A DNA stretch of 22,499 nucleotides, counting the filler, from an uncultured archaeon (GTDB taxonomy: Archaea; Iainarchaeota; Iainarchaeia; Iainarchaeales; 1-14-0-10-31-34): assembly GCA_964442255.1 (NCBI GenBank). It is 6 parts of 6 records of this genome, joined end to end, with 100 filler letters (N's around TTAATTAATTAA, not from the genome) between each part and the next. Parts side by side here need not be neighbours in the genome. Positions count along the whole stretch, not along the records: positions 4,522 to 8,587 come from CAYTYC010000044.1; 5 more parts are not named here. One strand, written 5' to 3'. Shown here piece after piece: positions 2,206-22,499 of the stretch. A program made the position numbers and the translations under genes. Each line of letters starts with the position of its first letter. The first letter of the stretch is position 1. The notes beneath the pieces are model-generated. The model did not search any database and had not been told where the DNA came from. It was given only the letters and a program-made list of their open reading frames with translations.

Positions 2206-3353
2206 TTAAACAGGGGCTTCTTTCACAAAATAAAGCGCAACAAGCGCAACAACTGTAGCGGCAATCCCGAACAAAAAGGTGAGTTCCTGGCTTAAGCCCC
2301 ACAAATGGCCGGCAATTATTCCCCCAGGCAAAGCGGCAAGGCCCACCGAAAAATGGTATGCGCCCAAGGAAGTGCCTTTATAGTCTTCATCCGAAATGTT
2401 TGAAACAAAGGCGCGCTGCATGCTGTCAGTGACCGCATAAACCACCCCAAACATCACAAACAAAAGCAGAAAAAAGAAAAGCCCATGGAAGAAAATGAAC
2501 CCCAGGTTTGTGAAAATGTAGAGAATGTAAGCGAAAATGAGGAGCTTTTTCTGGCCAACCCTGTCGGAAAACCTGCCCGCAGGGTAGGCGGAAAGGCTTG
2601 ACGCAACCTGGTAAACAGTGTAAAGGGCAATAGGGGCTGCGATTGCAAGCGCCGCGGTGAAGGCGGACTGGCTCCTTAAAACAAAAAACATGTAACCGAA
2701 GTTTCCGAGCGCGAAAACCGCGGAAGAAAAGATAAGGATTTTCAGGGGAAAGGAAAGGCTTCCGATTCCTTTCCTGAAAGTGATTTTTTTTTGGTCTTTC
2801 CCTGTCTCCTTCACCCAAAGGAGGGGAACCACGGAAAAAAAGGCAATGATTCCAGCGAAAAGGAAAATCTGCTGGAAGCCGAGGCCAAGGAAATAAAACA
2901 AGATTAACGCGACAATTGACCCCAAAACAGCGCCCCCGAATCAAACGCCCTGTGAAACCCGAAGCCTGCGCCTTTTTCGCCTTTTTTTGCGGAATCCGAA
3001 ATCAGTGAATCAGCGGGCGCAGCCCTCAACCCTTTTCCAAGCCTTTCCCCTGAACGAAAAAACAGGACGGCGGGCCAGGAGGAAGCGAACGCAAACAACA
3101 GCTTGAATGCCGCGGAAAGCAGGTAGCCTCCGCCCACCAAAAGCCTTTTTGCGTTCACCCTGTCCGCAATGTGCCCTGAAGCAATTTTCATGAAGCTCAC
3201 AATCATTTCGCTTGCGCCATGCACCAACCCCACGGCAAGCCCTGTTCCCCCCAATGAAACAATGAAGAAAGGCAGGAGGGGAAGAATTATTTTGCTGGAC
3301 AGGTCGTTGATTAGGGAAACAAATGAAAGCATCCAGATGTTTCTTGAAGCCAT
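2206..3353 (-). pseudogene. MFS transporter split by a single-base frameshift (real or sequencing artefact)
   Basis: ORF 2904-3353 (SGHIADRV, ERLGKGLR, GFGFHRAFDS) and ORF 2206-2925 (GRFSDRVG) are the two halves of one MFS protein. One extra G in the G5 run at 2933-2937 restores ...FDSGGAVLGSIVA... Confidence 0.8.
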
Positions 3354-4365: not shown

Positions 4366-4421
4366 ATATGACATCCTTCCACGGCTAAAGCAATGGGTTT
4401 CCCTGAATTCGTTGAGGATGT
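4366..4421. repeat. Palindromic IS200/IS605-end-like element, family A, copy 2 (at contig end)
   Basis: Matches 124-179 except CG>AA in the 3' arm of the inner hairpin. Confidence 0.8.
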
Positions 4422-4521: not shown

Positions 4522-4651
4522 GCGCCCTCAGTCCGCCCATCTGTCTTCATCGCCGTCTGCTCACGGCGGCAGAGCACCCTGTTTTCAACAGGACTGGCTC
4601 GCTTTCGCTCGCATTAAGCCGGCTCGGTGTCATCGTCAGTTCATCATCGGG
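4522..4651 (-). ncRNA. Extended box C/D sRNA, copy 1 (predicted 16S rRNA guide, including Cm1402)
   Basis: Minus strand: C ATGATGA (4647-4641), guide ACTGACGATGACA, D' CCGA (4627-4624), 71-nt structured insert, C' CGATGA (4552-4547), guide AGACAGATGGGCGGA, D CTGA (4531-4528). CCC/GGG terminal stem and a TATA-like TTTTTAA about 25 nt upstream. Confidence 0.78.
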
Positions 4652-4690
4652 TAAGGAAAATGTGCGCGGAAACGGTTAAAAAAGGGGTTT

Positions 4691-8687: not shown

Positions 8688-8742
8688 TGCTCTGCCGCCG
8701 TGAGCAGACGGCGATGAAGACAGATGGGCGGACTGAGGGCGC
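8688..8742 (+). ncRNA. 3' part (C', D guide, D box) of the extended C/D sRNA
   Basis: Exact 55-nt reverse complement of 4522-4576. Probably an assembly overlap with copy 1. Confidence 0.75.
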
Positions 8743-8766
8743 ATTTATTTTTATCGCAACAGCAGT

Positions 8767-9711
8767 TTACTGGATTTTCCGGATTATTTCAAAATCAGTG
8801 CAGAGAACAAAGTCGCCGATTTGCAGATTTGGAATTGAGTTCTTTATTTCAGCGACAGAATGGTTTCTGGCCACTTGGACCCTTGCCCCGTTTGGAAAAA
8901 TTTTCTTGATTTTGCCTTTGTAGGTTTGGTTCACCTGGCGGATTGTTTCGGATAATGCCGCATTGAAAGAGTTTGGCTGGACGCCGAGCAATGTTTCTGC
9001 TTCCTTTATTTCGGCTTGTGAAATTCCTTTCAGGCTTTGGAGTATCTTGTCTTTCCTCAAAACTTCAAACATTTTTGGCGGAGCATTTTCCTCTCTGGCA
9101 AAAAGCAATATTGCGGCGATGTCAGCGATATCCTTTTTCCGCTTGTCTTCTTTCTGCCTTCCCGGCAAGGATTTTGTTTTCATTGCCAGCAAAACCCAGG
9201 GCTTTGGAAGCCAGAGCTTTTTGTTGAATTCATCCAGCTCCGTGCGATTTTCCTTTTTTGCAAAAACATATTCGAGCAGGATTTCGTCAAGAAGCAGTTT
9301 GCGGTTTTTCTCGTCAAGCGATTTCGGAATATAATCAACCAGGAGGTCAACAAACATTTTGTGGATGTCAAAAAGAGGCTTTGCCTGCGCTTCTGCTTTT
9401 GAGAGTTCTTTGCCGGTTTCAAAGTCGAGCTCTTTTACCATTCTACCGCCAACTTCCCTAAAGCCTTCATCTTCAAGCTTTTTCATTGAATGGATAAACG
9501 CGGATTTGGAAAAATCCTTTCCCTCTTCCAAATGAAATCCCAAATCAATATCCCTTGAGCCCAGATAATCCCTGCCAGTGTTAGCCTTGTAATTCTTGTT
9601 GACTGCCAGGAAAATTGCCCAGCCGCCAAGCAGGCAAATCGGCTCTTCCAAAACAGAAACCACTTTTTGCAGATACTCATAAGACCGCGTGGTTTCCCTT
9701 CCGTCGTACAT
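8767..9711 (-). CDS. Nucleotidyltransferase, AbiEii/type IV toxin-like
   Basis: LLGGWAI...SRDIDL, VDLL and LAMK...R...KRKKDIAD motifs. Coupled to the upstream gene by a TAATG overlap. Confidence 0.75.
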   Translation of the reverse strand: MYDGRETTRSYEYLQKVVSVLEEPICLLGGWAIFLAVNKNYKANTGRDYLGSRDIDLGFHLEEGKDFSKSAFIHSMKKLEDEGFREVGGRMVKELDFETGKELSKAEAQAKPLFDIHKMFVDLLVDYIPKSLDEKNRKLLLDEILLEYVFAKKENRTELDEFNKKLWLPKPWVLLAMKTKSLPGRQKEDKRKKDIADIAAILLFAREENAPPKMFEVLRKDKILQSLKGISQAEIKEAETLLGVQPNSFNAALSETIRQVNQTYKGKIKKIFPNGARVQVARNHSVAEIKNSIPNLQIGDFVLCTDFEIIRKIQ

Positions 9712-10388
9712 TATTCTTTCCCCTTCAAGGTCTTCACGAGCTTTTCCAAAAGCATGTCAGCAGCCTCGGCAGCAGGCCCGCCTTCGGCATACAAATCAGA
9801 AATCAATTGGGGAAGATTGACAAGCCAGGGACCTTCACTCTCTTTTTTGTGTTTGCCCTTCTTCGCATCAAAAAATTTCTCGCCCGCTATTTTGCCATGT
9901 ATTCGTTTCTTGTTGAAAAGCTCATCATTTAAAGAAACAATAATCCGAACATTCCCGCCGCCATAGGTCCCGATTGCAGTTAATTGCTTGTGCCAATCTT
10001 CCAAGTCTTCCTTTTTTATGTAAGCCTCTGTCCGATGGCTGAACAAGTGCTTTTGCAGGATGTTCTCGGCAATATAAGTCGTGAAAGCATATTCCTTGTT
10101 GGATTTTTTGAACAGGTCAATCAATTTGTCCACGTTGTCAAGCGAATAAATAGAGTAGCTTCTCGAAATTGTCTTCTTGGGCCGGAGATTATGGAACAAC
10201 TCAAACAAACCCTTGGGATTAACCACTTTGCGGTCTTTTACAAGCTCTTTCTTTTCAAGCTTCTTAATTACATTAATTGCCCATGTGGGCGTACTTCCGG
10301 CATCTTTAGCAAGCCTGTATTTGCTCTCCAGCTTGTATTCCGGGTCAAGAAGGAGCGTAAGCATCCTCTTCATCTTGGTTCTAGCCAT
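9711..10388 (-). CDS. HTH-containing AbiEi/type IV antitoxin-like regulator
   Basis: N-terminal wHTH (KYRLAKDAGSTPTWAINVIKKLEKKELV), YAFT, GNV and VNLPQLISDLY..GG...EAA patterns. Upstream of the NTase. Confidence 0.72.
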   Translation of the reverse strand: MARTKMKRMLTLLLDPEYKLESKYRLAKDAGSTPTWAINVIKKLEKKELVKDRKVVNPKGLFELFHNLRPKKTISRSYSIYSLDNVDKLIDLFKKSNKEYAFTTYIAENILQKHLFSHRTEAYIKKEDLEDWHKQLTAIGTYGGGNVRIIVSLNDELFNKKRIHGKIAGEKFFDAKKGKHKKESEGPWLVNLPQLISDLYAEGGPAAEAADMLLEKLVKTLKGKE

Positions 10389-10399
10389 AAAAAAACCCA

Positions 10400-10515
10400 A
10401 TATATAACTAACTCAAACTATTTATAAATAGAAGTTATATATAACTAACTCAAACTATTTATAAATAGAAGTTATATATAACCAATTAAAGATCTTTATA
10501 AATCTCAGTTATATA
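10400..10515. repeat. 37-bp tandem array (2 exact units plus 1 degenerate) of palindromes; putative operator/promoter
   Basis: Unit ATATATAACTAACTCAAACTATTTATAAATAGAAGTT at 10400 and 10437, degenerate at 10474. Contains the perfect palindromes CTATTTATAAATAG and AGTTATATATAACT. Confidence 0.9.
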
Positions 10516-10740
10516 CCTGCCAAACAGATAAATTATAACGGTTCCGGTCAGGCACAAACCAGCCTTTGGCTTGCGACCGAATTTTAACCACTTTGCACAT
10601 AAAGAGCTTCTGTATTGGCAAGTTTTGCCCAAGGATTGTAGTAACATCTATAACTCGTATGAATGTTCAACTGACTTAATCCAAGGCGTTAACCCCACAG
10701 AAACGTTATATTTAAATATTTTGTGGGGTTAACTGTTTGT

Positions 10741-11682
10741 ATGGTTTATTTCTCCGAGAAAAAGATTAAAGGGAAAAAATACCTTTACGCAATCCACTCG
10801 GTCAGGCTGCAGAACGGAAAAATCGCCAAGCTAAGCAGGCGGGTTGAAAAAAAGTCGGTTACGCCCGAGCTCCGGAAGTACTTCTCCGAAAAGGAAGCGG
10901 AGGCCAGGGAAAAGAATGCGCTTGAGGTGTTTGAGGCGGACAGCGTTTTTTCAGGGGAACAACTGCTTAAGCTGGAGAAAACAAGGCAGGAATTCAAGAA
11001 AATCCTGAAAAGACTTTCAAAAAAACAGCTGCAGGACTTGTTTGACCGCTTCACGGTTAACTTCACTTACGAGTCAAACGCGTTGGAGGGAAACTCCCTT
11101 ACACTGAAAGATGTTGCAATTGTGATGTTTGAAAACCGCATGATAAAGGACAGGGATTTACGGGAAATTTATGAGACAAGAAACTCCAGGAAAGTAGTTG
11201 ACCTGATTCTGAAAAAGAAGTTCAGGGCAACGGAAAAGGACGCCATCAAAATGCATAAAATGCTTGTAAAAGACATGGACATAGCAACAGGCTACAAAAA
11301 GGTGCCGAATTATTTGCTTGGAAGCAATCTTGAAACAACTCCGCCTGAAGAAATCGGAAAGGAAATGGGAAAACTCTTTAAATGGTTTAAAAAAGAGAAA
11401 AAAATGCATCCCCTGCAGAAGGCGGCGCATTTCCATGGCCGGTTTGAAAAAATCCACCCATTTGAGGACGGAAACGGCAGGGTTGGAAGGTTTCTGATAA
11501 ATGTTTCCTTAATAACCGAGGGCTATGCGCCGCTTATAGTGAGAAAAAGCCAGCGGACAGCCTACCTGAAATGCCTGCAGGACTTTGACAACTCCTACAC
11601 GCAAAACCTTGAAAGATTCCTTTTGGACAAGTACAAGAAAACCTTCGAAAAATTCTTCCAAACCTACATGAAATACATTTAG
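10741..11682 (+). CDS. Fic-family protein with an N-terminal inhibitory motif (class II-like)
   Basis: Canonical HPFEDGNGRVGR motif, preceded by SNALEGN, which fits (S/T)xxxE(G/N). Confidence 0.93.
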   Translation: MVYFSEKKIKGKKYLYAIHSVRLQNGKIAKLSRRVEKKSVTPELRKYFSEKEAEAREKNALEVFEADSVFSGEQLLKLEKTRQEFKKILKRLSKKQLQDLFDRFTVNFTYESNALEGNSLTLKDVAIVMFENRMIKDRDLREIYETRNSRKVVDLILKKKFRATEKDAIKMHKMLVKDMDIATGYKKVPNYLLGSNLETTPPEEIGKEMGKLFKWFKKEKKMHPLQKAAHFHGRFEKIHPFEDGNGRVGRFLINVSLITEGYAPLIVRKSQRTAYLKCLQDFDNSYTQNLERFLLDKYKKTFEKFFQTYMKYI

Positions 11683-11749
11683 GAGCGGTTGCAAAAAAAT
11701 AGGCACAGCTTTCCCAAGTGCCAGATAGCCGGAACGACACAACATCATC

Positions 11750-12350
11750 TTAATCAGCTTTCCTTCCTTTTAATTTAGTTGTTTTTTTAAGATATGCAAT
11801 ACCGCCGTGCTTTTTTGAAGCCCGCCTTCTAGATTCAATTAACGCCTGATGAACATCCGGCGCATATCTTACTGCATACGATTTTTCTTCCCTAGTCTGT
11901 TTTATGGCGTCCTTCAATCTCTTTCGTGTCAATTCACCCCCATAAAAGCAATTGATATCCGGCTTCCAAAGGGAAATTACCTGTCTCGTGAATGATAGTT
12001 CCCTAACTAAGTTGCTGGTGTCAAGTGGAAGCCAATTAATCTGCAAACCAACTCGTTTCTCAAGCGCTTCAGCAATACTTTCATAGAATTTCTTGGGCCT
12101 GTCGCCAACATACCTCCCCCCTATGCGCGCGTTCATCAACCATTATAAGAACATCAACGTCTTTATGCAAAATATCAGGAACAGTTCCAAAAACCAAAAC
12201 CCCCTTCAAAGAAGGGTCTTTCGCCATTATTGGGTCAACGACTTCTTTTATGCCTTCTAAAACAGGTTCAAAATGAGGCCGGTCACTCCTCAGTCTTCTG
12301 CCCATCCGCACCCAGCTTTTTTGGAATGCTCCCAGCTTTCTCTTCCGCAT
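11750..12350 (-). pseudogene. Minimal nucleotidyltransferase (MNT)-like gene with a frameshift
   Basis: ORF 12081-12350 has GVLVFGT...KDVDVLI. ORF 11750-12139 has IAEALEKRVGLQINWLPL, resembling the MNT LE..LG..VDLV segment. Removing one G from the G6 run at 12116-12121 fuses them. Confidence 0.62.
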
Positions 12351-12530
12351 AACAGATAATTAGTTCCCTTGTTTTTAAGGCTTTGCAACCCCCCTTGCAG
12401 CAGCACCTCCATTTATAAAGACCCCAAATCCGCTTTAGGCATAATAACAGATGTCCCGATTCCATTCAAATTGTCCCGCAAATGTCCCGAAAATAATGGC
12501 ATTAAAACCTTTCCTCCAACAGTTTATAGT

Positions 12531-12610
12531 GCGGCCTTGATGAGCTGACGATGACACTGAGCCGGCTTAATGCGAGCGAAAGCGAGCCAGTCCTGTTGAA
12601 AACAGGGTGC
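12531..12610 (+). ncRNA. Extended box C/D sRNA, copy 2 (5' part, cut by the contig end)
   Basis: TGATGA 12538-12543, guide GCTGACGATGACA, D' CTGA 12557-12560. Differs from copy 1 at 2 positions and has a different upstream flank. Confidence 0.75.
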
Positions 12611-22426: not shown

Positions 22427-22431
22427 TTGGG

Positions 22432-22483
22432 AAGAAATCCGCAGACCGCTGCCTGAAGGCAGCGGATTTCTTTGGGTTGTTAA
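22432..22483. repeat. Palindromic element, family B, copy 2
   Basis: 50/52 identical to 197-248. Both differences lie outside the paired stems. Confidence 0.85.
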
Positions 22484-22499
22484 AAGTTTTATTCCCTGA

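Follow-up and report, generated by a model that had tools for sequence, protein, structure and literature searches.

A conserved box C/D guide RNA gene in a DPANN archaeon carries, between its D' and C' boxes, a copy of a three-hairpin repeat that recurs across the same genome. We regard this gene, on the minus strand at 4522..4651, as probably a working, conserved methylation guide that harbors a tolerated, mobile passenger. The window, meaning the whole stretch of DNA analyzed (22,499 bases), consists of six small contigs (C43 to C46, C48 and C49) joined by five N-run linkers. Its source genome (G000; Iainarchaeota) is assembled into 51 contigs of 1.28 Mb in total and is 93.8% complete. The 130-nt gene, which we call copy A, comprises the first bases of contig C44 and was aligned with its orthologues (alignment A1). 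An initial annotation had proposed an oversized box C/D guide RNA at this position. This proposal stands: boxes, spacings, and stem are all in place and are conserved or covarying in 17 orthologues of other genomes.

Anatomy, orthologues, and rRNA targets of the guide RNA

The guide RNA retains the layout of its class around an unusually long linker. From its 5' end, and throughout on the minus strand, it comprises a C box (4641..4647), a 13-nt D' guide (4628..4640), a D' box (4624..4627), a 73-nt insert (4551..4623), a C' box (4544..4550), a 12-nt D guide (4532..4543), a D box (4528..4531), and a 6-nt 3' tail (4522..4527). The first three bases of this tail can pair with the three bases preceding the C box, and the resulting 3-bp terminal stem would bring together the C box, near the 5' end, and the D box, near the 3' end. 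The four boxes originally recognized are therefore confirmed, with guides of 13 and 12 nt and a short terminal stem, while the insert proves to be 73 nt long rather than the 71 nt first given. The D' box of copy A has a variant form, and the C' box also deviates from consensus. Upstream of the gene, about 28 nt before the C box, lies an A/T-rich box (4676..4683, minus strand). The orthologues, like both G000 copies, have a similar box that precedes the C box by some 28-38 nt, and we consider it a candidate TATA-type promoter element.

Standard family models do not capture this RNA. No Rfam family matched in the window at gathering thresholds; with lax thresholds, there were sub-threshold matches to guide RNA families, the best being that of its 3' half to Pyrococcus sR1 (E = 0.1). 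Folded as a single sequence, the 130 nt do not outperform shuffled sequences (z = 0.37). With a 73-nt D'-C' linker and a length of about 130 nt, the RNA also departs from the short K-loop of compact archaeal sRNAs (~50-70 nt).

The guide RNA is widely conserved among relatives, mostly in compact form. We searched the 130 nt against 41 genomes (G000 and 40 relatives), 32 of which matched at E <= 1. Among the 19 loci inspected, 17 hold this decoding-site guide RNA and two hold a second guide family. Alignment A1 (18 rows) shows that the boxes and both guides are conserved, the D' guide being nearly invariant, whereas differences in the terminal stem and the linker come as paired changes; the spacing of the guides is the same in all 17 orthologues. 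Fifteen of the 17 loci are compact, with a D'-C' linker of 3-16 nt that often forms a mini-hairpin, and two are expanded. Expansions at the same site were found in G000 (73 nt) and in G031, G015, and G176 (74-76 nt), although the 76-nt insert of G015 was missed by our covariance model (R1, below) at E <= 1e-4. At four loci with a compact guide RNA (L009 in G026, L011 in G018, L016 in G025, and L022 in G001), the 3' end of the guide RNA is repeated downstream over 16-34 nt, with hairpin elements between.

Could the expanded copies be disabled, decaying relics, killed by insertion? The off-consensus D' box of copy A and C' box would fit such decay, as would the third hairpin of the insert, which competes with a stem needed by the internal kink-turn. 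However, compact orthologues have variant D' and C' boxes of the same kinds, and both guides of the expanded RNA are intact and identical, or nearly so, to those of compact orthologues. Expanded forms also persist in related genomes, both of this guide RNA (G031 and G176) and of the second family (G007 and G004). Furthermore, our searches of G000, which is 93.8% complete, yielded this guide RNA in no compact form, and the expanded one has presumably been kept for that reason. We therefore consider decay extremely unlikely.

Both guides match the organism's own 16S rRNA. G000 encodes one archaeal 16S (C17:1481-3155) and one 23S (C17:4235-7220). The 16S gene spans 1675 nt against a model of 1478 positions and so contains about 200 nt of extra sequence, in which, as in the rest of the gene, no R1 unit was found. 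The D guide forms nine contiguous Watson-Crick pairs with 16S positions 1545-1553, and the fifth guide nucleotide, counted from the D box, pairs with C1548, which we take to be the equivalent of E. coli C1402. The predicted targeting of the decoding site, with the N+5 rule falling on C1402, thus agrees with the host's 16S. The G-U pair that accompanied this prediction is an A-U pair here: the host has an A where E. coli has G1405, and the 9-bp duplex is consequently fully Watson-Crick. The D' guide was proposed to match helix 34, and it does so with 11 contiguous pairs at 1197-1207 in copy A and 12 of 12 at 1197-1208 in copy B. Its N+5 nucleotide is A1200 in helix 34, presumably at about E. 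coli position 1061.

The statistical weight of the two matches differs. When the guides were shuffled, the observed pair count was reached somewhere in the rRNAs by 18 of 500 D' guides for copy A and 4 of 500 for copy B, and by 325 of 500 D guides, in a test on total pair counts that is weak for short guides. The D' match is unusual by this measure. The 9-bp match of the D guide (9 of 12 pairs) is at chance level by itself, and its weight comes from conservation. Genes for fibrillarin, Nop5, and L7Ae are present in G000, all above Pfam cut-offs. By analogy with its family, the guide RNA would assemble with these three proteins. Judging from the pairing to the host's 16S, the D guide would then direct 2'-O-methylation to the decoding-site C and the D' guide would direct it to the helix 34 nucleotide. 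Bacteria and eukaryotes, too, carry a 2'-O-methyl group on the decoding-site C (C1402).

A second guide RNA family of G000 carries a homologous insert with different guides (contig C33, about 2920-3048; L005/L067). The predicted targets are two 23S sites 29 nt apart, near positions 2602-2611 (10 pairs) and near 2631-2640 (10 pairs, including one G-U); in the shuffle test of its two guides, 84 and 429 of 500 shuffled versions reached the observed counts. This family is compact in eight genomes and expanded in four (G000, G007, G004, and G106), with the insert at the same place. G007 and G004 belong to the same family of genomes as G000, and the second-family insert is kept in two genera within a single family. 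The G106 orthologue has its guides in swapped order, which amounts to a circular permutation.

Two gene copies around a 3.9-kb segment

G000 contains a second copy of the guide RNA gene, which is split across contig ends. The 5' part of this copy B lies on the plus strand at 12538..12610, at the end of contig C45, and runs from the C box through the D' guide and a D' box of consensus form into the insert, of which it includes the first 49 nt. Its identity to copy A is 97%, with three differences in the 73 aligned positions, including the D' box (CTGA in place of CCGA) and the first guide base. The two copies and their D' difference are thus as initially reported, apart from the splitting of copy B. 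The start of contig C45 holds the 3' 55 nt of a guide RNA on the plus strand (8688..8742), comprising the insert end, C' box, D guide, D box, and tail. Contig C30 starts with identical bases, and this 55-nt 3' piece is common to both guide RNA copies. The copies lie at contig ends, which indicates that the element is a repeat that broke the assembly. A few recurring sequences are found at the starts or ends of many G000 contigs, which means that it is broken by further repeat families as well. Short repeats likewise occur near contig ends within the window, at 124-179 and 4366-4421 and at 194-255 and 22429-22490 (56 and 62 nt, 90-96% identical).

The public sequencing runs listed as containing this stretch are all DNA runs, with no RNA run among them. 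Read depth fits two guide RNA copies per genome. Among contigs of run X1, which is possibly the source sample itself, a shared 104-nt piece has a depth of 14.7, compared with 7.2 for the C44 flank and about 8 (7.9-8.3) for contig C45. The same contig joint at the guide RNA copies was seen again in a second sample of the same study. The arrangement may be a tandem (C44 reversed, then C45, then C30) or a chromosome plus a 3.9-kb circle; the assembly graph is symmetric and fits either.

The 3.9-kb segment flanked by the two copies (8688-12610, contig C45) has the depth of the chromosome flank and looks like a small toxin-antitoxin or defense islet. Three genes were recognized in its body (8767..11682): an AbiEii-like nucleotidyltransferase gene encoding a 314-aa protein (8767-9711, minus strand), an adjacent gene for a 229-aa protein of no known type (9711-10400, minus strand), and a Fic/DOC gene (10723-11682, plus strand). 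Contig C45 additionally holds two small ORFs. The AbiE-like gene pair is separated from the Fic gene by three tandem 37-nt A/T-rich repeats (10387-10497). Searches of the contig with Pfam, PHROGs, and NCBIfam recognized neither an integrase nor a replication gene. The two guide RNA copies probably represent a duplication that brackets, or recombines out, this toxin-antitoxin-type segment.

Structure, distribution, and mobility of the three-hairpin repeat

The insert consists of a three-hairpin repeat unit (4551-4615, minus strand) preceded by an extra 8-nt 5' piece (4616-4623, minus strand) that could pair with the last bases of the unit. We aligned 14 units from eight genomes (alignment A3), seven from guide RNAs and seven free-standing; the alignment leaves out the G015 insert, copy B (split over contig ends), and several further G000 units. 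A covariance model of 65 positions built from A3 (R1) scores the insert of copy A at 82.2 bits, the insert having been part of the seed alignment.

Comparative analysis supports three consecutive hairpins. On A3, the model is 94.8% paired, has compensatory changes in 11 of 18 pairs, and is equaled by none of 500 shuffles; pairing in slid controls is 28-44%. In hairpin 1, a short helix containing two tandem G.A pairs encloses a variable inner stem. Hairpin 2 has a variable sequence with compensatory changes in six of its eight pairs, which bears out the middle hairpin of the initial annotation. Hairpin 3 (99% paired; three of six pairs compensatory) has a G+C-rich stem of 6 bp, capped by a loop whose 6 bases are conserved. 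RNAalifold recovers the same hairpins 2 and 3 from eight expanded guide RNAs. All of the evidence for the insert structure is comparative.

The three-way junction that had been drawn for the insert is not supported by this comparison. Its first hairpin was right in its core, although this is a helix with two tandem G.A pairs, while the outer stem is 80% paired in eight sequences, a level that 276 of 500 shuffles reach. The earlier third hairpin was rejected (71% paired, no compensatory pairs, and 449 of 500 shuffles as good). The closing stem is possible (90% paired) but invariant, and it competes with the supported hairpin 3 for the same 3' strand. Hairpin 3 also takes the strand needed for the canonical stem of the C'/D' kink-turn, so the insert might hinder assembly of the internal RNP. 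In our preferred reading, of a working guide with a passenger, the insert would be tolerated because the linker presumably projects away from the two guide/box modules and leaves their 12-13 nt spacings untouched.

The unit is repetitive in G000 and patchy among its relatives. Searches with nhmmer revealed weak copies of the insert all over G000. With R1 (E <= 0.01), we obtained 32 matches in this genome, equivalent to about 28 units at some 14 loci, many of them in tandem arrays and only three in guide RNAs. Across the order (E <= 1e-4), R1 matched 25 of 151 genomes from 11 families, G000 having more matches than any other; a plain DNA search with the insert matched 18 of 196 genomes. A free copy in G129, which belongs to another family, is 90% identical to the G000 insert. 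The initial annotation had named a high-copy repeat as a finding that would speak against the guide RNA. This description is true of the insert only, not of the guide RNA.

Units outside guide RNAs are associated with other stable RNA genes. Among the 29 units listed for G000, 17 lie within 350 nt of a tRNA predicted by aragorn. Five tandem arrays end 2-3 nt from the end of a tRNA gene (C9:29663-30058, C47:50-343, C12:38337-38612, C28:12555-12686, and C24:7832-7900), and one unit lies inside a predicted 147-nt tRNA intron (contig C38). In relatives, units lie directly before the tRNA 5' end, including that of rRNA operon spacer tRNAs, or abut the tRNA 3' end on the opposite strand. These placements follow a polarity rule: the 3' end of the unit faces the tRNA in 13 of 14 such cases in relatives, and likewise in the G000 arrays, which are on the same strand before the tRNA 5' end and on the opposite strand after the tRNA 3' end. 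The RNase P RNAs of three related genomes (G123, G120, and G006) contain a unit on the sense strand in place of helix P12 (genes at L087 1159-1486, L089 1356-1685, and L094 1470-1853); the RNase P RNA of G000 contains none. Rfam searches around seven other G000 unit loci detected no known RNA family except one tRNA. The link of this repeat to guide RNAs and RNase P RNA is new, as is the polarity rule.

The insert may instead be an extra functional domain, the other reading offered at the outset. The three-hairpin unit would then be a functional RNA module, for protein docking or as an aid to folding and assembly, shared by stable RNPs and tRNA precursors. Its loop and linker bases, which are unpaired, are invariant across the 14 sequences and eight genomes of A3, and its structure is maintained through compensatory changes. 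The unit is in sense orientation in eight of eight guide RNAs and three of three RNase P RNAs, and its host sites, the C'/D' motif and RNase P P12, adjoin L7Ae-binding kink-turns (PMC5499556). The invariant unpaired bases, the sense-only orientation, and retention between genera, as for the second-family insert, would fit function better than a neutral passenger. Nevertheless, most orthologues of both guide RNAs lack the unit, as does the G000 RNase P RNA, and its distribution among the 151 genomes is patchy. Beside tRNA 3' ends, where the unit lies in the opposite orientation, the complement of the unit would be present in the tRNA transcript. Its first hairpin is without the 3-nt bulge of a kink-turn, and its tandem arrays and fresh flank duplications resemble a spreading repeat. 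On balance, we think it unlikely that a functional module accounts for the insert.

Flank duplications point to insertion at the DNA level. Four of 31 units, all four from a single family of genomes, have exact duplications of 12, 22, 25, and 38 nt that begin at the 3' end of the unit. Among 464 control places, 3 have a flank duplication of 12 nt or more, the longest being 14 nt. Visual inspection of G018 and G026 shows the guide RNA 3' end duplicated over 16 nt and 34 nt, and between the duplicates lies a unit or a related hairpin element. The guide RNA gene seems to serve repeatedly as a landing place. Around the insert of the guide RNA itself, we saw no flank duplication. Of the two readings initially offered for the insert, these data favor an inserted mini-element: G000 holds about 28 repeat units, the repeat recurs in relatives, and some units have long flank duplications. 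The unit would have entered the D'-C' linker by DNA-level insertion.

The agent of this mobility was sought among known enzymes. No reverse transcriptase was found in the five genomes searched. Two matches to Y1 transposase were found in G000, and none in four other unit-bearing genomes searched (63-94% complete), which have fresh copies. A miniature inverted-repeat transposable element (MITE) was considered and rejected: the ends of the unit are not inverted copies of each other in A3, and the duplications (12, 22, 25, and 38 nt) are not of fixed length.

The insert could instead be removed from the transcript, as an intron or through endonuclease cuts, leaving a mature guide RNA that is compact or in two pieces. 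The unit does occur in parts of transcripts that are discarded, namely the predicted tRNA intron on C38 and tRNA leaders. Two-piece box C/D RNAs assemble in vitro (PMC7994747), and the swapped guides of one second-family orthologue are as expected after a circular intermediate (compare PMC6009581 and PMC3491384). However, when six expanded guide RNAs were scanned under strict criteria for the bulge-helix-bulge motif of archaeal introns, with two 3-nt bulges flanking a 4-bp helix, none was found where homologous inserts begin and end, and copy A gave no candidate. We judge removal very unlikely and retain the reading of a guide RNA that carries its passenger.

Relation to known systems and biological significance

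The guide RNA is canonical in most respects other than its linker. Published work on archaea describes compact guide RNAs with a K-loop and guides of 10-12 nt, guide RNA genes that are permuted or mobile, and sites for L7Ae in P12 (PMC7994747, PMC6009581, PMC3491384, PMC4644070, and PMC5499556). Like canonical archaeal box C/D sRNAs (PMC7994747 and PMC6009581), the RNA described here has four boxes, guides of 12-13 nt, the N+5 rule, a terminal stem, rRNA targets that are close together, and a host that encodes L7Ae, Nop5, and fibrillarin. It differs from them in having a 73-nt structured linker instead of a short K-loop and in being duplicated around a 3.9-kb segment. Eukaryotic box C/D snoRNAs share the long, partly folded internal region, and an internal stem can join D' and C' in them. 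Here, by contrast, the host is archaeal, the orthologues are otherwise compact, and what fills the internal region is one copy of a genomic repeat rather than lineage-specific sequence.

The repeat has partial counterparts among mobile and structural elements. In Pyrobaculum calidifontis, MITE-like elements resemble sRNAs, and circularly permuted sRNA families have also been described (PMC6009581 and PMC3491384). The shared features are small non-coding repeats tied to guide RNA genes and guide RNAs that behave as mobile or rearranging genes, including the permuted G106 orthologue. In Pyrobaculum, however, the repeat itself resembles a guide RNA and has inverted ends, whereas here a three-hairpin unit with neither boxes nor inverted ends lies inside a guide RNA. 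The double kink-turn of helix P12 in euryarchaeal RNase P RNA, which binds L7Ae (PMC5499556), has the same host position as the unit in three Iainarchaeota RNase P RNAs, and the unit's first hairpin contains tandem G.A pairs. Unlike the kink-turns, the unit has its G.A pairs in a continuous helix with no 3-nt bulge.

Bacterial REP, BIME, and REPIN elements are also short G+C-rich hairpin units that form tandem mosaics between genes. REP/REPIN repeats occur together with a Y1 (RAYT-like) transposase; of the five unit-bearing genomes searched, G000 has a Y1-type transposase gene, and the other four yielded none. The present units differ from them in lying inside RNA genes, in their fixed polarity at tRNA ends, and in their long variable flank duplications. 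In the open-access texts searched, we found no report of a long structured D'-C' insert or of this three-hairpin repeat. The polarity rule and the long variable flank duplications fit no described archaeal mobile element, and the repeat therefore provides a handle on RNA expansions in small DPANN genomes.

The archaeal box C/D guide RNA is a textbook case of a compact, strictly spaced molecule. Two conserved guide families, one of them directed at the decoding-site C, nonetheless carry a 73-nt folded insert exactly at the apex of the internal kink-turn. The D'-C' site thus tolerates, or exploits, large additions in vivo, and the expanded genes constitute a natural experiment for C'/D' RNP assembly. 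Furthermore, a single repeat family links guide RNAs, RNase P RNA, and tRNA genes.

A bolder account, which we offer as speculation and to which we assign a low probability, would unite these observations. The ~65-nt unit might be a small self-propagating RNA module confined to stable RNA genes and their immediate surroundings. It would enter guide linkers, P12, and tRNA introns in sense orientation; elsewhere, its 3' end would point at a tRNA or mirror-tRNA, so that trimming by RNase P would follow. Guide RNAs and RNase P RNA would have co-opted the unit as an extra RNP domain beside L7Ae sites. If this is true, the repeat would represent a new class of RNA-gene-colonizing element in DPANN archaea, and this guide RNA would be its clearest domesticated case.
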